From the IMG/VR virus record IMGVR_UViG_3300043101_000273: a stretch of 64,000 bases of DNA; one strand, 5' to 3'. The notes under the pieces are model-generated. The model did no database searches, was not told where the DNA came from, and was given only the letters and a program-made list of their open reading frames with translations. Shown in pieces: positions 12,414 to 58,308 of the stretch. Source of the stretch: an uncultured virus (IMG/VR IMGVR_UViG_3300043101_000273). Taxonomy: Duplodnaviria > Heunggongvirae > Uroviricota > Caudoviricetes. Every line of letters starts with the position of its first letter. Positions within the stretch are counted from its first letter, which is position 1. A program made the translations under genes and the position numbers.

Positions 12414-13214
12414 ATAGCGAACCACCTTCCTTATTTTTTCTTTACTATTAAAGATATAAGAAAAAGAAAACAAAATTATAAAGTGATAAAAAAGTTAAAA
12501 TATTCTTAATCTTTATATATAAAGAATAGGAATGACAAAAAACGGCAATAATAAAAAACAAAAGAAAAAATAAATTGGTAGCTATTGTGTGATTAAATAG
12601 CTACCATTATTTTTTGTTAGAACATAAATCTGTTTTAAATATAAATCTGCATAAAAAAAGTACATAAAATTTTTAATAAAACATAATATTATAAAATACT
12701 GGAGCGGAAAACAATTAAATAATTGTTTAATTGTTAGATTGTATATGATGAAATATGTTGGTAATCATATTTTGCAACAGTATTATTCTAAAACAAAAAT
12801 ATTAGTTAGTAAAAATCAGCTGTATAATAAAATATACATTATGTAAAATATTAAAGAGTTTTTATATAATGGAGAAAATTGTTATACAATAGTCATATTT
12901 ATATAAAGCTCCGATGATAATTCTAAAAAAGATAGTATTTATAAATTATTATATAAAGAGTATTAAAAATTAATTCTAAACATTAATTCTAAACATCAGT
13001 TCTTAACAACCATTAAATCGTAAACGAAGGTATAATCAATATTGTAATTTTTCTCTTATAAACATAATATAATAAAATCTTCTAAACACAAAACTTTTTT
13101 AAAAAATCCTTGACAAATTATAAAAAGTGTGATATAATATAATTAAGTTAAAGGTAGATAATACATTTTAACAAACACACATATTTTTTATAGAATTGAA
13201 AGGAGTTTTGACTT

Positions 13215-22546: not shown

Positions 22547-24002
22547 AAAACAATATAAAAAAGGAGGAATAATTACAAAGGGAGATTAAATTCTCCCTTT
22601 TTTGTTTGCTACATTTATTTTTTGTGTAAAATTATAAAAAAATAATTATATTTACTTTTTTGAATATACCTTAAAAAGCTCCAAAATCGATTTTAAGAGG
22701 TTTTAGACTTTTGATGTAGAATTTTACATTAGGTATATTAAAATTAAAAATAAGGGCAATTAAATTGATTTTAGAGGTATATATGAATTGATTTACTATA
22801 AAATATTTTCAGAAAAATAAAAATACTCATAAAATCGTTTAAAATCAATTTTAAGACGTTTTAATTTTTTATCAATGAATTTATCAACTTAATTATTAAA
22901 AGCTCTCAAAATTGATTGTGAGCGTTTTTAACGCTATTTATGAGTTGATATTACAAAAATATTTTTCTGTGTTATAACAAGAATTAAAAATGAAATAAAT
23001 AATATCTTTATAGATTTAAAAAATCGTGGCTGTTATATTGCAAAGGGAAAAATGTAGTATTATTAGAATAAGAATTATTAGAAAAGTTTTTATATGTGGG
23101 ATTTATAAAAATCTTTTTAAAAAATAATGTAACAAAGAATAAGTTATAAAAAAGATTTAAAATAATAGGATAAATAATTCTTAATACTGAATATTAAAAA
23201 TTAAATATTAAGATTAAATATTGAAAAATCTTATTCTTTATAGAATGAATGGAAAATATCAAATTAAAAATATAAAATTATAAAAATCTCTTTTTAAAGA
23301 ATTACTCTTACTCTTTAATATTGTTAAAATGAATTTTCTTAAAATGTGATGATTATATATTTTTTAAGAATAAGAAAACAAATAACAGGAATAATGAAAA
23401 CATTTCTTTTTAAAAAATTGAATTACAAAAGTTAAGAAAAGTTATAAAAGGATTTTATTTTACTTTTTAATTGCTTATATAAAAATAATCCTCTACTAAA
23501 AATATTATTAAAATAAGATTTACTTAAAAGATTTTTCTTACAAGAATAATAAAACCTTGTTTTATACAAAAAACTATTTTATGTAAAAGGTTATTTTAAA
23601 GTTCTTTTACTTAACAAAAATTTATATTATCCTTTTTTATTGTTTAATTCTTTTCTAACTTATAAAAGCAACTTATATATTAAAATAATCATTCTTAACA
23701 AAAATTCTTTTTATAATATTTTGTTCTCCATTAAATTTTTAAACATTCAATAATCCATTTATAAAATTATTTCTTTATAACTTTGTTTTAAAAACTCTTT
23801 TTAATAATCATTCAATTCCTTAGATAGGAATTTTAAAAAACCATCTTTAAAAAACATTCTTTAATAATCAATTAAAAATTTTCCTTTAATTATAAAAATA
23901 CAATTTTACATTTTAATAACCAAGTTTATAATATTACAACCACTTTTAAAATCCTGTTCTTAAAAGAGAAAAAATATAATCATTTTTATTCATTGTTATT
24001 TC

Positions 24003-24045
24003 GAGTGCGAAAGCACTCTGGGTGATGTGCGTTAGCACTCACCCA
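24003..24045. other. Twin GC-rich hairpins in an AT-rich non-coding region
   Basis: GAGTGC-GAAA-GCACTC and TGGGTGA-T-GTGC-GTTA-GCAC-TCACCCA. Confidence 0.8.
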
Positions 24046-25345
24046 AGCTCTTTTTTCTTTTTATTCTATAAAACTTATTTATTTTATTTCTTATTATTCC
24101 ATTCTTAAAAAATTCATTCTTAAAAACAAATTTCTTATTTTTAATTCTACATATTATTTCAAATTTTGTATTTAAAAATATTTTCACGTATCTTATTAAA
24201 TAATTTAATATTTTAATTATTAATAATTCTTTATTAATAGTAATCTTTAATAATTAATTATTAATAGTATTAAGAATTATTTAGTTGATAAGTAATTTAT
24301 TACTTATCTATTTAGTGTCCAAATAAAACGTCAACTATGTCCAAATAAAAATATTTTTTTTACTTTAATTCATCAAACTATTTTTTTGTTAATGCCTTAT
24401 TTTTATAGCATTTTAGCAAGTCGATTTTATGTAAAAATGAAAATATTTAGGGTACATTTATGTAAAATAAACGGTAAAAACGTCATTTTTGAAAACTAAA
24501 ACCCTTACCCTGTATGGAGAATTCGCAAATTACATTCGTATTTTTTATTGAGCATTAGACGTATTTTTGTGAAAAATAAAAAATCCCAAAAACCCTTAAA
24601 TAAAGGCTTTTGAGATTGGTATGGTTATTTTCTAATGTCTAGCTAAAAATATTTTTTAATGTATATTTAAAAATAAAAAATTTTCATTTAGACAAAAGAT
24701 GGGTTCGCAGAAGGTTTTTTTAAACAAATAACATACGCAAGTCATATTATTTGCGTTTTTTAAAAAAAATTAAAAATTTACAAAAAGTTTACAATTGCAA
24801 ATATCTATAACAATCAAGCATTTTACCATAAGCAGCGTATAATTGATAAAAAGTGGTATATTCGAATAAATATTTTTAAATGAATTATTTGTTGATTTTT
24901 TTAGTATGAACTGCAATAACGGGTGTATATAATCAAAAAATTTATAAATGAGAAACTTCTAATGCTCAAATAAAAATATTTTATATTATACATTAAAAAA
25001 CAGCAAAATTAGTATCTGAGTTACTAAAAAAAATTAACCTAATTTTCATCAAACATCGACAAATAAGTGTTTTCGATTTTTTAAAAAGCAATTTACTGTC
25101 GTTAAAATAAACATAATTATAAATAAACTATAGAAGATATTTTTAGAAAGACGTTTTTAGAAAAAATAATTTTTAATCATACATTGTAAAATATTATATC
25201 GTTTAAAAACTTTACAATTAATTCTAAGAGCTGTTTTTGTTTTTATTTAATATTTATCCATTAAAATATAAAAGGCTTGTATAATTGAAAATAAGCAATT
25301 AAAAAGGGAGAATTTCTTCTCCCCTTCTATACTTTTTTAATTTTC

Positions 25346-25907
25346 TTAATATTCTTCTTCATAGAAACCACATTCAATCTGTTTATAATCCTTTGGTGGT
25401 TCAGTTTCAATTGAGATTATATCCCAAGCCCAAGTACCTACATAATCTGCACATACCTCTGAAAAATAATCTCCACCACCCTTACCATTACCAACACAAG
25501 TTAATAGCGGCAGTGGGGTGAGTATGCCATCCATTGTCATCTTCTGACCTCTCATAATAGTCATTGCAATTAATATACAACTTTTTAGAATGATTGCAAA
25601 GGTACAAATTGAACAATTCAGTTTCTTTGTCTACACAATCAGACAATTTCATTTCTTCTACATTATCCTGTGCAATAATTTCATTGTAATGTGGATTATC
25701 TTTTTCGTCTGCATAGTCACCTAACCAAGCAACTCTATACTGTGTTTTATATAAGAGAGTGTCAATAGCATTACAAAAGCTATTCTCCCACCAACTGTGT
25801 TCTGTTAATTTTAAATTAACATTGTCACCGTCAATATACTTCATATTCACCATATACTTCTTGTTTGTTTTCACTTCTTTAATTACTGGCATATAATATT
25901 GTTCCAT
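25346..25907 (-). pseudogene. Single gene split by a frameshift at a C4 run (~25515-25518)
   Basis: ...GWHTHP | LPLLTCVGNGKGGGDYF...VGTWAWD reads as one protein across the two track ORFs. Confidence 0.75.
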
Positions 25908-26344
25908 TGTTATTCCTCCTTATTTTTTATAAATAATAATATGTGTGATTGATTGAGTTCTTAACTCTTATCTTGTTTATATTATACTATACTTTTTATG
26001 ATTTGTCAAGTATTTTTTTAATTTTTTAAAAAATATTTTATAATATTAATTCTTAATAAAGTTTCCGCTAGAGGTTTTTAAATATTTATTATTAATTTTT
26101 ATTATTCGGGGTTTAATATAGTTTCTAGTAACATTATTTTTAATTATAGCAGCTTTAAATGTTTTTATCAATAAATCTATCTAATAGATAACAGAAACAA
26201 TTGTAGTAATAAATATAAGCGTAAATAATGAAATCTATAACAGGATGATAATCAAACAATATTATAAATATTTTTAGCAAGTATTTTCTTAACAAACAAA
26301 GGGTATTAAAAAAAGGTAGGATATTTTACCTACCTTTTATTTTT

Positions 26345-26578
26345 TTAATAAGCATATAATGGCTGTGTAGCTGTGGGATAATCATTGAAATAATTATCCA
26401 ATACATTATGCAATTCTTTCTTTATTTTGTCACTATTCTTTATGCGGCTATCAACATAACAGATTGTAAAATCCTCTGTGTTAGCACCTTCAATATATGA
26501 ACATTCAAGTAGACTACCGCTTAATCTATATTTACCAAAAATGTTTTTTATCTTTTCAACATATTCATTCTTTTTCAT
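26345..26578 (-). CDS. Hypothetical protein
   Basis: Start MKKNE after AAAGGAG; terminator. Confidence 0.7.
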   Translation of the reverse strand: MKKNEYVEKIKNIFGKYRLSGSLLECSYIEGANTEDFTICYVDSRIKNSDKIKKELHNVLDNYFNDYPTATQPLYAY

Positions 26579-26669
26579 TATATTCACTCCTTTACGATAT
26601 ATACTTAATAAATTGACTATAAAATGTTTTTTACTTGACAATTAAATCATAATATGCTATTATAATATT

Positions 26670-26906
26670 GTAAAGATAACAAGCACCCTTATTTTTAGAA
26701 TATTCTAAAAATAAGTTTCTGGTGACTTCGGGTGATTTGCCATCCGAAAGGTGAGGGTAGCTCATATCACATACAGTTCAATACTGCCGTAGAGTTTTAA
26801 GGTTACACCGAATTGATGTAGTAATCCACCACTCACCAAAATTAGTATATAATATAAACATTCTTTATTGACGATTTACTTATATTTTTGTGAGAATAAA
26901 GTAAAT
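26670..26906 (+). ncRNA. Structured RNA 1; putative Cas12f/TnpB scaffold (tracr/omega-like)
   Basis: Own promoter TTGACA(26635)-17-TATTAT; no ORF or RBS; GC-rich stems TTCGGGTG/CATCCGAA with loop ATTTGC and GGTGAGGGT/ACC-A-CTCACC; ends ...AAAGTAAAT; homologous to the 57.1-kb RNA. Confidence 0.65.
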
Positions 26907-26947
26907 ATTTTTAATTCAATATCGAATAAATGTTCGTATTTAATATA

Positions 26948-27022
26948 TTAAAAAGCAAAATCGTGTGAATAAAGTGGGTTCTTTCTTAACTTATTTTCAA
27001 TTGCCTTTGTTATCAAATTCAT
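26948..27022 (-). pseudogene. Truncated gene (24 aa, MNLITKAIENKLRKNPLYSHD...), DUF2958-like start
   Basis: Full cassette promoter (27088) and RBS, but the ORF stops where the RNA locus begins. Confidence 0.5.
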
Positions 27023-27132
27023 ATTAGCATCTCCTTTTAAATGCGTGTTATTTTTTATACTTATATTATACCACAATTTTTATATTTTGTCAAGCGTTTT
27101 TTGAAAAATTATAAATAAAAGAATTTTATTCT

Positions 27133-27300
27133 TTATTCATAATCACTGTATTGATTATTCAAATATTCTGAATTAAGATAATCAGCCATTACCTCAATGT
27201 TGTCAAGTTCTGAACAACATTCTTTTAAGTTTTGTATTCTTTCAAGCTCTGCTGCCAACTGTTCGCTTGTTAATGTATTAAATCTTTCTCTTACTGTCAT
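27133..27300 (-). CDS. Small hypothetical protein
   Basis: Start MTVRE after AAGGAGG. Confidence 0.75.
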   Translation of the reverse strand: MTVRERFNTLTSEQLAAELERIQNLKECCSELDNIEVMADYLNSEYLNNQYSDYE

Positions 27301-27453
27301 ATTAAAAACCTCCTTCAAAAAGTGTTGTGTTAGATAACCATTTCTTATCTTGTTTATATTATACTACACATTTTATAATTTGTCAAGAACTTTTTTTGAA
27401 AATATTTTATATAAAAAGGCAAGTATATTTATATATACTCGCCTTATAAATTC

Positions 27454-28125
27454 TTACTTCTTAAACTCTTTTAATCCCATACATTCATCTACAAGAAATT
27501 CAAAACGCTTATGATAATTCAAATTTTTGAACTTTGTGTAATCTTCCGCATTTAACTTATATTTAACAGGAATATATTTGTACATTTCAAAACAATTGTA
27601 ATCGGGAATATCTTTAATTTCCAATTTCTTATTAAAAACATTCTTATCTGTTTTAAGTTTCTGTAAACAAGCTTCAAGATTATAATGGGTATCATTTAAT
27701 TTACTATTGATATAATCAACAGAAATAATTTGTGGTAATAAATTAAACTGTGAATCATACAATTTATCATCGCTAAGATTGATTAAAATAATTGTATTAA
27801 GTGTATCATTATAATTATCTTCATTTGGATTTAATAATACATTATAACTTAAATTACTTAATCTACCTGTCAAATATTTATCTAAATTCTCTTTGCTTAT
27901 TAAAAAAGGCATTAAGGTAATATTATTGTATACAATATTCTTCTTAATACTTTCAATAGTGCCGCTTACTTCTTCAATTTTATCCTTAGTATTAAAACCA
28001 GTAATTTTTTTTAATATTTGGTCATTATTATATAAAGTATCAACATAGAAAAACAAATTACTATTTTCAATTGGATAAGTATCAATCTGTCTTGTTATGT
28101 TGATGTTAAATTTTGTTGTATTCAT
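27454..28125 (-). CDS. Hypothetical protein
   Basis: RBS, terminator. Confidence 0.8.
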   Translation of the reverse strand: MNTTKFNINITRQIDTYPIENSNLFFYVDTLYNNDQILKKITGFNTKDKIEEVSGTIESIKKNIVYNNITLMPFLISKENLDKYLTGRLSNLSYNVLLNPNEDNYNDTLNTIILINLSDDKLYDSQFNLLPQIISVDYINSKLNDTHYNLEACLQKLKTDKNVFNKKLEIKDIPDYNCFEMYKYIPVKYKLNAEDYTKFKNLNYHKRFEFLVDECMGLKEFKK

Positions 28126-54485: not shown

Positions 54486-55856
54486 TTATTCAACTTTTGT
54501 TTTAGTCTTTTTAGACTTCTTTTTTGTTGACTTTTCTTTGACAACCTTTTCACCATTTGCATATACAATATTAGTTGATAATGCAATATTCCTCGCTGCG
54601 TTTAAATCAGCATTTATTTTAGTACCACAAGCCTTACATTCAAAATTTTTACCATTTCTTTGACCTTCTTCCCAGTGTCCGCAAGAAGAACAAATCTGTG
54701 AGGTATGATATGGATTTACTTTTCTTAATTCAATACCATATTTAGCTGCCTTATATTCAATCTGCGTTTGCAATTGATAATAAGACCAATTTCTTAAAAC
54801 AAAATCATTAGTATTATAACCTTCCAAATTTTCAACATTGATATATTTAGCTTTATTTCTTAAAGCAAAATCAACAACTCGTTTACTTATCATATGATTA
54901 TAAGTGTTTACATAATTTCTTTCTTTTTTGTTAAAAACTTCCAATGCTTTAAGTTTTTTATTTCTTCCGTGACCTCCTTTAGAGTTTTTCAAATTTCTTT
55001 GAAAACGTCTTTTTTGTTTTTGCAGTTGTGTTCTAACCTTTAAAAAATCCTCTTTATCTCCTAAAGGCTTGTTTGCAACGGTATTATTTGTTGCACAATA
55101 AGCAGGTATATTAATTCCCAAATCAACACCTACAACTGTATTCTCATCAAGTTCCACAAATGATTTAGGTATTTCCAAAGATAGATTAAGAATAATTTTA
55201 TTACCATCTATTCCAATACTACTGCCTTTTATTTGATATATTTTATCAATCATAACCTTTTGCAGAATACTTCTTAATTCAAATGACTTCTTAAAATTCT
55301 TTCCGTTGTCTAAAATAACCTTAAATTTAATTTTATGAACCCATTCCATTCTAAGAGATAAATCTTTCTTATACAAATGATTTAAAAATTCTTCATCGTT
55401 TTCATAATCGTGTTTGAATTTAATATCCCTTCCCCTTGTTAAAAGTGGAACATCTGATTTGTAATTATTTATACTTCTTTCACCATATCTCAATCCATTA
55501 TTTAATGCAGTTTTAAAATCTTGCTGAACTTTTTTATGCAATTGTGATTGAGAATCTACACCTGTTGCAAATGTAATATCTGCCGATGTATATAAAGAGT
55601 CATAATAAGATTTTTGAAAAAGTTCCTTTTTCTCTTTTTTATAATCAGCATTATTCTCATTACAATTATATTTATAATATAAAGTCATAAGTTGGCTCAT
55701 CATAAGATTTAAAGCATTATTTTGGGCTTTTTGACCATCTCTTATAAATTTATATGCTTTATTAACTTCTTCTTCGTCACCAATAGGATAAAGTGCAATC
55801 TTCCTACAAATAATCATAGTTTTACTTATATTTTTTTCTTCTTTATTGTTTTCCAT
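54486..55856 (-). CDS. cas12f: Cas12f1/TnpB-family RNA-guided nuclease, RuvC apparently intact
   Basis: RuvC-I VVGVDLGINIPAYC, GGHGRNKKLKAL, YNH.ISK.VV, RuvC-II INVENL, LRNWSYYQLQ.QIEYKA, PYHTSQ.CS.CG..C..CG Zn finger, RuvC-III NADLNAARNIA; GERS..NYK...PL.TRGRD as in clostridial Cas12f1. Confidence 0.88.
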   Translation of the reverse strand: MENNKEEKNISKTMIICRKIALYPIGDEEEVNKAYKFIRDGQKAQNNALNLMMSQLMTLYYKYNCNENNADYKKEKKELFQKSYYDSLYTSADITFATGVDSQSQLHKKVQQDFKTALNNGLRYGERSINNYKSDVPLLTRGRDIKFKHDYENDEEFLNHLYKKDLSLRMEWVHKIKFKVILDNGKNFKKSFELRSILQKVMIDKIYQIKGSSIGIDGNKIILNLSLEIPKSFVELDENTVVGVDLGINIPAYCATNNTVANKPLGDKEDFLKVRTQLQKQKRRFQRNLKNSKGGHGRNKKLKALEVFNKKERNYVNTYNHMISKRVVDFALRNKAKYINVENLEGYNTNDFVLRNWSYYQLQTQIEYKAAKYGIELRKVNPYHTSQICSSCGHWEEGQRNGKNFECKACGTKINADLNAARNIALSTNIVYANGEKVVKEKSTKKKSKKTKTKVE

Positions 55857-56590: not shown

Positions 56591-57100
56591 ATAAATACCT
56601 CCTTTAGTATTGTGTGTTTTAATTTAATTATATTATACTACACTTTTTATGATTTGTCAAGCGTTTTTCGAAAAAATATTGTCTTATTTAGAACTTATAA
56701 TTTTATAGTTTATACATTATTATTCATCAATATTCATTATTTTATTCATTTTATCCCGTATATAAAAAGTTTTTTATACATTTTTCTTATAATTTATTCA
56801 TTTATAAAAATGAATTATACAGAATTATTTTTGAATATTAAGTATAAAATATTAAAGATAATTATTGTTAATAAGACGTTGTATTCTTATAAAAATATTT
56901 AAGGATAAATAATTAAAAGTATTTTGCTAAAGAAGTATTAAAAATTTATAAATGAATAATGAATATGAATAATTAAAAAATATACATAATATTATACATT
57001 TTGAAAAAATGAATTAAAGAAATAACATTAATTGCAATGTTTTTAAAATTTTGATAAAAAGACCATTGACAAATAATATATAATATGTTATTATAATGTT

Positions 57101-57546: not shown

Positions 57547-58308
57547 TTAAAATCTACTTATTATCTTTTCAATTTCTTTTATTGTGGCTTCATTTCTTTC
57601 CTTGAAATCGATTCTTATACAATGTGAATATACAAGAGTTTCATTATTATCATTAACTTCAACCTCAATCCTACCCTCTGTTGTAATTTCTCCATTCTTC
57701 AATTTTTTATTGATATTAGCTCTCTGATTAAAGTATTCAGCAACCAGTGAATTATATTGTTCATCTTCTTTAACGAACAATTCACCGTCATAACTTCCAA
57801 ACTCTCTATACAAAAAGCTATACTTGTTTTCATCCGTTTTTCTTTCAATATATGTGATAAAATAAACATTGATACAATTGTTTTCCCAGTTACTTACGTG
57901 AATGTATTCACAGGAATTATCAATCTTATTCTTATACTTATTGAATAGTACTTCTATTCGTTTGTTAAATTCCTTTCTACTTATGCTGCCACTAATAGTT
58001 GCAATCTTTTCGCTTTGCTTTTCAATTCTTGAATTAGCACGGTTTAATTTCTTTTGTAATTCTGTTATTTCTTTTTCCAATTTATACTTAATTTGATACT
58101 CTGATTTAATTTTTTCAAATTGTTCTCTTATCTTTGGTTCAAGTCTTACAGTAGTGGCGGTATATTCATTTGAATAAATCTTGTGAATATCACCATCAAT
58201 ACCAATAAATTTCATTGTATTAATATCTTCTACGTTTATAAGCATACCAATAAAATTCTTATCGTTTTTTGTTACACGTCTTATATCATAAAGTTTTACA
58301 TTTTCCAT
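57547..58308 (-). CDS. Hypothetical protein with coiled coil
   Basis: RBS AAGGAGG. Confidence 0.8.
   Translation of the reverse strand: MENVKLYDIRRVTKNDKNFIGMLINVEDINTMKFIGIDGDIHKIYSNEYTATTVRLEPKIREQFEKIKSEYQIKYKLEKEITELQKKLNRANSRIEKQSEKIATISGSISRKEFNKRIEVLFNKYKNKIDNSCEYIHVSNWENNCINVYFITYIERKTDENKYSFLYREFGSYDGELFVKEDEQYNSLVAEYFNQRANINKKLKNGEITTEGRIEVEVNDNNETLVYSHCIRIDFKERNEATIKEIEKIISRF

Follow-up and report, generated by a model that had tools for sequence, protein, structure and literature searches.

A Candidate Array-Less Single Guide RNA Gene for the Cas12f Nuclease of a 379-kb Phage

Introduction

Single-guide RNAs are usually seen as an engineering invention, and the natural ones known so far serve Cas9 (tracr-L and the vsgRNAs) or nuclease-dead relatives of Cas12f. 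A stretch of 64,000 nucleotides (nt) from an uncultured virus of the Caudoviricetes (IMG/VR record IMGVR_UViG_3300043101_000273; this whole stretch is called the window here) raises the question of whether a phage can also encode such an RNA for a nuclease-type Cas12f. An earlier note on this DNA had proposed a natural single-guide RNA at 26670-26945, in which CTTTATT (26863-26869) pairs with AATAAAG (26895-26901) as a fused anti-repeat:repeat, TAAAT (26902-26906) forms a pseudoknot with the loop ATTTG (26735-26739), and the guide starts at 26907. These motifs, and a guide at 26907-26926, are indeed read there. Our analysis favors, with a probability of about 0.55, a functional array-less guide RNA gene at 26670-26961 of the plus strand, that is, a natural single guide for the type V-F Cas12f of the same phage. 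Its first ~170 nt are the scaffold of a trans-activating RNA (tracrRNA) of a CRISPR system, with a σA-type promoter ahead, and a 12-nt repeat end, AATAAAG-TAAAT, replaces a separate array. Outside the view of the earlier note lay a cas12f gene 28 kb away, four other copies of the RNA gene, three of them with arrays, and a degenerate repeat that starts after 29 nt of candidate guide.

A tracrRNA Scaffold of the RhCas12f/CnCas12f Clade

The presumed effector is encoded on the minus strand of the window (54486-55856) as a protein of 456 amino acids (aa) that PADLOC identifies as Cas12f (E 3e-116; Cas12u3, E 2e-112). Its matches in PDB are 8hr5_A (E 1.7e-96), which we take to be CnCas12f1, 9nzp_A (E 6.5e-85) and AsCas12f entries (E ~1e-45). 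The entry 9nzp is given as RhCas12f in a data-availability passage, and the effector is thus homologous to those of the RhCas12f1/CnCas12f1 clade. All three RuvC motifs (GVDLG, NVENL and NADLN) are present, and the protein is apparently intact. Its gene is the third of an operon (a small open reading frame (ORF), a 135-aa ORF and cas12f) with a TTGACA promoter near 56660; no array lies near it in this phage, only one degenerate repeat follows the RNA gene, and a Pfam search of the genes around cas12f returned nothing.

A covariance model (R1) of the core of four copies of the RNA in this phage was run on 27 non-self loci with Cas12f homologues of 42-57% identity, 7 of the loci being from bacterial genomes (gut Firmicutes and others) and 20 from viral contigs. 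At 21 of these 27 loci the cas12f homologue has, on its own strand, a match that begins no more than ~150 nt from its 3' end; the window copy itself scores 166 bits. On this sequence evidence the RNA belongs to the tracrRNA family of the RhCas12f/CnCas12f clade, and its earlier description as a guide-RNA scaffold thus holds, with cas12f in the same window. It was also considered as the omega-RNA of the window's TnpB-like gene. This was rejected, the gene being a Cas12f directly followed by a terminator hairpin, without a scaffold.

The window is part of a 151-kb IMG/VR virus record, and the same phage is also represented by a 379-kb contig (G001), the identity of the two resting on 839 compared bases, all the same. 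A two-anchor pattern based on the core, which is rich in G+C, matched viral contigs at 14 places, belonging to four paralogue types. On the 379-kb contig these are copies A (~279 kb), B (~333 kb), C (~354 kb) and D (~83 kb), the last being the window copy, whereas the pattern had no match in metagenome contigs of the Joint Genome Institute (JGI). A covariance-model scan of the 379-kb record gave five strong copies, and the core of the window copy spans 26681-26840; the fifth, copy E at ~4 kb, is visibly degenerate. A further, weak match (G001:2201-2358) is by eye unrelated to the scaffold and was set aside. Shorter contigs of other samples also contain copies A, B and C. Common to all copies, in the sense of the window's plus strand, are a promoter at a fixed distance, the core and a 3' module, CTTTATT...TACTTRT.TTTTTGTGAGAATAAAGTAAAT, which is kept in four paralogues and has one change in a fifth. 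Arrays of 8, 3 and 9 repeats of 30 nt, with spacers of 34-37 nt, are found ~100 nt past the tail in A, B and C, respectively; their repeats all end GAAAGTAAAT (in summary form, AAAGTAAAT), and no cas genes lie within ~9 kb of the three arrays. The spacer tested from array A was found again without change in 5 contigs, and that from array C in 4, with several samples represented (among L065-L073, 45 to 379 kb), and the arrays look static in this phage population.

The scaffold of the window copy, on the plus strand, starts with three helices that are common to all relatives. In helix 1 (26684-26724), CACC/GGTG closes a variable inner hairpin (TTATTTTTAGAA..TTCTAAAAATAA) that is absent or of other sequence in the paralogues, and all 4 of the 4 closing pairs change on both sides in the family. 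Helix 2 (26727-26748) is formed by TTCGGGTG and CATCCGAA around ATTTGC, with double changes in 5 of its 8 pairs in the family; the repeat's 3' end has its pseudoknot partner in the loop of this helix (26735-26740). Helix 3 (26750-26837) joins GGTGAGGGT (26750-26758) to ACC-A-CTCACC (26828-26837), with 6 of 9 pairs changing on both sides and 98.2% of cells paired, and encloses a phage-specific insertion with helices 4-6 (26759-26825), in place of which relatives have a short loop. An anti-repeat-like stretch (AATTAGTATATAATATAAAC, 26840-26859) follows, which can pair with the 5' half of the CRISPR repeats of the phage, and then the tail module (26863-26906), in which CTTTATT, a 25-nt loop, AATAAAG and TAAAT make up an anti-repeat fused in cis to a repeat end. 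With CTTTATT the tail can form 7-8 base pairs (bp), and TGGAAAG of the array repeats, by eye, only ~4-5 bp; the tail thus outpairs the array repeats at CTTTATT and is not merely a stray first repeat.

At the 23.6% G+C of the window, A/T-rich pairings of 5-8 bp are by themselves within chance, and the support for this architecture comes from comparison. The four aligned paralogues show compensatory changes in 5 of 37 predicted pairs, one of which is a double change from C-G to U-A that only copy D has, in the ATTTG-bearing hairpin of helix 2. In the family alignment (25 matches, E up to 0.001), which was fitted to the model and thus favors it, 92.3% of cells are in standard pairs, against 73.0% in shuffled alignments, and 19 of the 37 pairs have changed on both sides; none of 500 shuffles was as high on either measure. 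When the structure is slid along the alignment, the paired cells fall to 35-44%. Most of the double changes are in helices 1, 2 and 3. The earlier note had named two competing folds, of which the long closing stem TGGTGA (26720-26725)/TCACCA (26833-26838) is present but unsupported by covariation: TCACC pairs instead with the GGTGA of GGTGAGGGT, in a co-varying helix, and the stem was rejected. The other, a hairpin of ATTTACTT (26874-26881) and AAGTAAAT (26899-26906), is present as well and is weighed below.

Promoter, Strand and Transcription

The RNA gene has its own promoter (26635-26663, plus strand) with TTGACA, a 17-nt spacer and TG-n-TATTAT (11 of 12 matches, extended -10), which predicts a start of the RNA near G26670. 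This promoter (CTTGACAA...TATTATAAT) precedes all paralogues at a constant distance. The 276-nt fold is better than that of shuffled sequences on both strands (z = -4.36 on plus, -4.31 on minus), so that folding energy gives no choice between them; plus is the RNA strand because of the G-U pairs and the conserved promoter. No ORF of more than 48 codons crosses 26646-26947 on either strand.

Expression data consist of three metatranscriptome runs, available as contigs. One RNA-library contig of 161 nt matches 26743-26903 exactly, with a depth of 9.7 compared with 2-3.4 for its neighbors, which hints at expression; strand, ends and RNA source cannot be read from such contigs. Contigs derived from the paralogues run from the tail into the leader, and none in the three runs covers 26912-26945, the contig specific for D stopping at 26903. 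Since contigs break where paralogues share sequence, neither the uncovered stretch nor this stop says anything about the end of the RNA.

The Pseudoknot Between Loop and Repeat End

At each locus the bases that end the CRISPR repeat are complementary to the helix 2 loop, and both change together across loci, giving the loop/repeat pair types UUUCA/UGAAA, UUUGG/CCAAA, UUUUG/CAAAA, UUCAG/CUGAA, UUUCG/CGAAA and CUUUG/CAAAG. Within the phage two further types occur, UUUAC/GUAAA in A, B and C, and UUUGC/GCAAA in E and in D with its degenerate repeat. When counted automatically, 12 of 21 scaffold/array pairs had 5 or more contiguous Watson-Crick pairs, and several of the 9 misses are by eye errors of the script in loop or repeat boundaries. 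In 5000 re-pairings of loops and repeat ends the mean was 2.6 and the maximum 8, so that none reached 12. Such a pseudoknot with the 3' end of the repeat is described as characteristic of Cas12 tracrRNAs in a preprint on one phage-encoded Cas12. To judge from this covariation the pseudoknot is real in the family, and the contact of TAAAT with ATTTG, which the earlier note had drawn from the window alone, corresponds to the family's guide-adjacent pseudoknot, with one G-U pair in the window copy. The covariation also provides a simple rule for predicting crRNA (CRISPR RNA)-tracrRNA partners in this clade.

Copy E offers an example of this within the phage. In its locus (L062, G001:2300-5800, reverse strand 1880-1340) two decayed repeats end GCAAAAG, and the helix 2 loop TTTGC fits the GCAAA repeat end, as against TTTAC/GTAAA in A, B and C. 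In copy E parts of the scaffold that are otherwise conserved (CCACTCGCC, GCCAACC) are by eye altered, whereas copy D has kept its helices through compensatory changes.

Homology Ends Where the Candidate Guide Begins

Over the 40 nt that lead up to 26906, D is 82% identical to A, B, C and E; past that point the identity is 50-57%, and random 40-mers of the window give 54 ± 6%. The drop to background falls exactly at 26906/26907, which agrees with the guide start that the earlier note had proposed, and the alignment shows no unbroken conservation past 26906. From 26907 to 26935 (plus strand) extends a spacer-like candidate guide of 29 nt, ATTTTTAATTCAATATCGAATAAATGTTC, the first 20 nt of which (ATTTTTAATTCAATATCGAA) are the guide of the earlier note.

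Directly after this stretch lies a degenerate CRISPR repeat (26936-26961, plus strand; GTATTTAATATATTAAAAAGCAAAAT), recognized by local alignment to the repeats of copy E. The scores with the copy E repeats were matched by 3 and 2 of 500 shuffles, that with the canonical repeat by 35 of 500. This repeat ends GCAAA, complementary to the loop TTTGC of D, and its duplex with the loop is more stable than that of the tail (-5.4 compared with -3.9 kcal/mol). A possible repetition of the tail module (GTGTGAATAAAGT, 26955-26977) did not exceed shuffled sequences (222 of 500) and was dropped. In copy D the scaffold is thus followed by the anti-repeat-like stretch, then by the fused repeat end, a single stretch of spacer length and, last, the degenerate repeat. 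As in a mini-array, a 12-nt repeat end (26895-26906) and a degenerate repeat (26936-26961) flank the 29-nt stretch, and with a degenerate repeat 29 nt past the tail the unit is also a vestigial one-spacer array.

Fused Scaffolds in Other Genomes

Fusion of a tracrRNA scaffold to a repeat end is found elsewhere in the clade. Five scaffold copies in three other viral contigs (L050, L051 and L053) are invariant through ACTTGTGTAAATTCAGAGCAAGT-ACAAAA (also given as ...CAAGTACAAAA), an end that consists of a small stem followed by the pseudoknot strand for the loop TTTTG, and in one of these copies a G-C pair of the small stem has changed to A-U. After the repeat end four different sequences occur among the five copies, which is the variability past the pseudoknot strand that the earlier note had suggested looking for in homologues. 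In a Roseburia genome, a locus without an array has ATTATGT-TAATTAA-ACATAAT-ACAAAAG directly after the scaffold. Fusions with variable 3' parts in other contigs make this a recurring feature of the clade and no oddity of the window.

Some further loci deserve mention. Multi-copy fused scaffolds are located at 343-436, 1892-1981 and 6280-6367 of L050, in L051, in L053, at 6247-6340 of L035 and at 4838-4915 of L047. In the L050 copy at 1892 and in L053, what comes after the repeat end is the ribosome-binding site and beginning of the adjoining gene. L047 has a single-repeat scaffold just ahead of cas12f, so that the "guide" is the 5' region of cas12f. An Anaerotignum cas12f locus with a normal array (L037, 6480-6540) has, by eye, a hairpin CTTTTC TT GAAAAG between tracrRNA and array, the 3' strand of which resembles the repeat end (ATGAAAA). 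The cis tail may be more general.

Comparison With Engineered and Natural Guide RNAs

The closest counterpart is the single-guide RNA engineered for RhCas12f1, with which, and with the Rh/Cn clade at large, the comparison draws on two sources (PMC10090079; bioRxiv 10.1101/2025.08.14.670346). The RhCas12f1 repeat, as given in Supplementary Data 1, ends GGAATGTAAAT, and its tracrRNA begins with a hairpin that has ATTTA in the loop, after which CTGAGGG...CCACTCGG comes (PMC10090079). The working single-guide RNA is composed of the tracrRNA (...CATTCCA), GAAA, TGGAATG-TAAAT (TGGAATGTAAAT) and the guide (PMC10090079). The window RNA has the same layout of 7 nt that can pair with the anti-repeat plus the 5 nt TAAAT, and the same position of the candidate guide, so that the fused anti-repeat:repeat of the earlier note has the layout of a tested design; repeats end GTAAAT in both systems. 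Both scaffolds also contain a hairpin with a GATTTnnC-type loop, a (G/C)TGAGGG...CCACTC helix and then the anti-repeat. They differ in that the fusion is natural here, with a 25-nt loop in place of GAAA, and compared with the tracrRNAs of the clade the RNA has its own promoter, a position 28 kb from cas12f, five dispersed copies in the phage and a large insertion in helix 3.

The tracr-L RNA, on which Workman and colleagues published in 2021, is reportedly the natural single-guide RNA of Streptococcus pyogenes Cas9. The vsgRNAs are single guides for Cas9 encoded by phages (bioRxiv 10.64898/2026.06.01.729453). Both unite in one molecule, as the window RNA would, a tracrRNA, a piece resembling the repeat and a short guide, and the vsgRNAs also share the location in a phage. 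They differ in serving Cas9 (type II), in a 5' guide and in a known target, the cas9 promoter (11-13 nt), and the vsgRNAs act against the nuclease of the host; the window RNA has a phage-encoded Cas12f as presumed partner and a candidate guide of 20-29 nt at the 3' end, for which no target was found. Nuclease-dead Cas12f homologues drive transcription with sigma-E by means of single chimeric guide RNAs, and the authors of that work describe the dual crRNA/tracrRNA as collapsed back into a single guide (PMC12259090). Those RNAs join a scaffold and a 3' guide for a Cas12f relative, as the window RNA would, in systems that are catalytically dead, linked to rpoE and found in Bacteroidetes, with guides of 14-16 nt (PMC12259090), whereas here the RuvC motifs are present, the same genome has full CRISPR arrays and the setting is a phage.

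The omega-RNA of TnpB (IS200/IS605), single by origin, is like the RNA proposed here one molecule with a structured scaffold, a pseudoknot adjacent to the guide and a 3' guide; it overlaps the 3' end of tnpB and the right end of the transposon, and the window RNA overlaps neither. Stand-alone mini-arrays of the cr-like type, known from CRISPR-cas loci and from prophages (bioRxiv 10.1101/2023.03.03.530964), share the repeat-like piece, the spacer-like stretch and the degenerate repeat outside a normal array, but are not fused to a tracrRNA scaffold, and "V-F" and "Cas12f" occur 0 times in the text of the study. Full-text literature searches, with most subscription journals outside their coverage, returned no report of natural single guides for nuclease-type Cas12f, phages included, and none of phages with dispersed tracrRNA-array modules. 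The 379-kb phage described here combines a nuclease-type Cas12f with five dispersed tracrRNA genes, each with a cis-fused repeat end and one of them array-less.

Proposed Function and Alternative Explanations

If the RNA works as a single guide, it would be transcribed into the stretch after 26906 and loaded onto the Cas12f dimer, where CTTTATT and AATAAAG would form the minimal repeat:anti-repeat stem and TAAAT (or GTAAAT) would pair with the helix 2 loop ATTTG(C) in a pseudoknot beside the guide, as in Cas12f and TnpB RNAs. The 20-29 nt from 26907 would then act as the guide, directed at DNA that adjoins a protospacer-adjacent motif (PAM), and this target might be located in the host, in a rival element or, through partial pairing, in a regulatory site. 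The degenerate repeat would be the old end of a one-spacer array, and the unit would most likely, and most simply, have originated by a deletion between the tail and an array repeat. Such an RNA would provide Cas12f with one hard-wired specificity, early in infection, beside the crRNAs of the three array-bearing paralogues. If copy D works in this way, the split of omega-RNA into tracrRNA and crRNA would be reversible in an active defense or offense system, phages could hard-wire a target beside an adaptive array, and nature would have reached the minimal design of the RhCas12f1 engineers (7 bp plus a 5-nt pseudoknot).

Several results weigh against this function. A convincing target with a PAM, such as the cas promoter, which would mark a natural single guide, was not found in the searches of the phage, of viral contigs and of metagenome contigs. 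In the 379-kb record the 20-mer finds itself and one site with 3 mismatches (reversed control, 2), and its 16-mer, with up to 2 mismatches, has 22 matches in the phage compared with 8 for the control, none near cas12f. Within the window, seed matches of 10-12 nt occur at 16 sites besides the guide itself (reversed control, 1), again none near cas12f. The 25-mer finds only itself in the viral contigs of IMG/VR, and in JGI metagenome contigs the only hit is a 22-nt match from a brine sample, an unrelated habitat, which was set aside as probably due to chance. The spacers of arrays A and C gave nothing better than E 0.1 against GenBank phages, and two spacers scanned in viral contigs matched only the arrays themselves, so that the spacers yielded no PAM. 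Also on this side of the balance are the 28 kb between RNA gene and cas12f, whereas in relatives the scaffold abuts the gene, the length of the 29-nt stretch, shorter than the spacers of the arrays (34-37 nt), and the 88-93% likeness of A, B, C and E past the junction, by which their post-tail sequences are conserved among themselves and show no guide variability. Every copy of D encountered is identical, so that no orthologue tests it.

The same observations can be explained by a duplicate in decay, in which D lost leader and array by deletion, perhaps remaining as a redundant tracrRNA for arrays A-C, and everything after TAAAT is junk. That such modules decay in this phage is evident from copy E, and the repeat past the 29-nt stretch of D is itself degenerate. 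The anti-repeat of D pairs with the repeats of arrays A-C over 14-15 bp at -7.5 to -9.9 kcal/mol, less strongly than that of paralogue A (-11.9 to -15.5 kcal/mol), the target searches came out empty, and the tail module, present in all paralogues, need not be special for D. We nevertheless consider decay, the chief alternative, somewhat unlikely. The promoter is intact, and compensatory changes have maintained the scaffold helices of D after its divergence from A, B and C, something that would not be expected under decay. The ends of the deletion fall exactly so as to join the tail with a stretch of spacer length, and comparable fusions whose 3' parts vary are found repeatedly in viral contigs other than this one. 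Rather improbable, in our view, is a guide-less tracrRNA that ends at ~26912, with ATTTACTT/AAGTAAAT and ATTTTT as terminator, and acts in trans or as a guide-free occupant of Cas12f. Its appeal, which counts against a single guide as well, is in the alternative hairpin of the tail, which in isolation is more stable (-3.4 kcal/mol as drawn and -6.9 kcal/mol as minimum free energy of the segment) than CTTTATT/AATAAAG (-1.9 kcal/mol). This hairpin sequesters GTAAAT and is followed, in copy D alone, by ATTTTT, so that termination before the guide is possible, and the D-specific RNA-library contig stops at 26903. The stem has, however, one G-C pair and is not listed by the terminator scan, in A, B, C and E the hairpin is followed by AATGAAT and RNA-library contigs read through into the leader, and the stop at 26903, as said above, is uninformative.

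Two other explanations place the RNA outside the phage's own Cas12f system. It might be a decoy that loads the Cas12f of the host and sequesters or redirects it, in the manner of compact phage single-guide RNAs that sequester Cas9 or direct it against the promoter of its own gene (bioRxiv 10.64898/2026.06.01.729453), and Cas12f of this clade does occur in genomes of gut Firmicutes; such a role is very improbable in a phage that itself encodes an apparently intact Cas12f, along with three arrays whose repeats match. Least credible of all is that the core acts on the minus strand (as leader, intron-like element or antisense RNA), in a long 5' leader of an mRNA running from 27065 to a 78-aa ORF (26581-26345). 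Just to the right of the RNA gene there is indeed a convergent minus-strand unit (26948-27093), with an early promoter at 27093-27065 (12 of 12 matches), a ribosome-binding site and a 24-aa ORF (27022-26948), and the minus strand folds equally well. Its promoter points at the RNA gene, so that both transcripts would overlap, and its transcript would cross the RNA gene in antisense to reach the 78-aa ORF. On the minus strand, though, the G-U pairs of the conserved helices become A-C mismatches, promoter, cas12f and arrays are all on the plus-sense side in paralogues and relatives, and no intron or leader of Rfam matches. A split gene or intron on this strand was rejected, the 24-aa and 78-aa ORFs showing no sign of forming one gene.

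Returning to the single guide, a broader version of it would extend to the other copies, which we regard as doubtful. Cas12f would run on the crRNAs of the arrays together with hard-wired single guides from the cis tail of every tracrRNA gene, the guide of A, B, C and E serving auto-regulation and that of D a host or rival. The tail guide of A, B, C and E (RATGAATAAAAAATAAT...) would recognize AATGAATAAA motifs through seeds of 10-13 nt, as tracr-L regulates Cas9, D would send Cas12f to a fixed site of the host or a rival phage early in infection, and other phages of gut Firmicutes would share the design of swappable 3' guides on a minimal fused repeat end. If true, this would give Cas12f a natural way to return from dual RNAs to single guides of the omega-RNA kind. 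The lead behind it comes from the conserved post-tail sequence of A, B, C and E, which begins RATGAATAAAAAA. The version of copy A shows five seed matches, namely 13 nt at +2349, 11 nt at +2381, 10 nt at +2329, 11 nt at -56750 and 10 nt at -56802 (reversed control, 1), and all five fall in the arms of a 108-nt inverted repeat. One arm of this element, of which the 379-kb contig has two full copies, is directly upstream of the promoter of the cas12f operon. These matches recall tracr-L but are a lead only, being post hoc, in an A/T-rich motif and at sites upstream of the -35 box instead of over the promoter. The arms of the inverted repeat (2329-2436 and 56695-56802) are 88% complementary and rich in AATGAATAAA motifs.

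Genomic Setting of the RNA Gene

The window is dense in short genes, each with an upstream copy of one strong TTGACA-17-TATAAT promoter family. There are ~20-23 copies per strand set (e.g., 25970-26045, 27058-27129 and 13101-13184), each driving a short gene, with a conserved downstream stretch and a CACACA-type tract ahead of the ribosome-binding site, and the region looks like a host-takeover or early-gene region. A promoter and ribosome-binding site that serve only the 24-aa ORF give the impression that the RNA cassette was inserted into an early gene; a paralogue of the 24-aa peptide was not found in the 379-kb record. Searches for known elements were negative: Rfam gave no match in the whole window at gathering thresholds, and with the limit relaxed to E 10 its 7 weak matches in 25500-28000 were all outside 26670-26945; a scan for tRNA and tmRNA (transfer-messenger RNA) genes found none; blastn of 26600-27000 against GenBank phages gave no match; and a synteny search through the neighboring 223-aa protein returned the same phage only.

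With regard to TnpB-like proteins, a 253-aa ORF (57547-58308) with a weak OrfB_IS605 match is not similar to Cas12f (E 0.44) and was set aside. The other TnpB-like genes of the 379-kb contig are ordinary IS605 copies, distinct from Cas12f; one locus (L029, G001:304442-307639) is a complete IS200/IS605 element with TnpA and TnpB, with a TAA stop in the TnpB region, and two more TnpBs are located elsewhere.

To the left of the RNA gene, 2.7 kb without ORFs (22600-25300) separate convergent gene blocks. This stretch is extremely A/T-rich and possibly an origin, terminus or packaging region; short repeats (AATCAATTTTAAGA) are dispersed in it, and a single G+C-rich hairpin stands isolated at ~24000-24050. 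Next to it, on the minus strand at 25346-25907, two overlapping ORFs of 139 and 72 aa match the N- and C-terminal parts of phrog_3156, and this pair is a frameshifted gene or a gene decoded by frameshifting.

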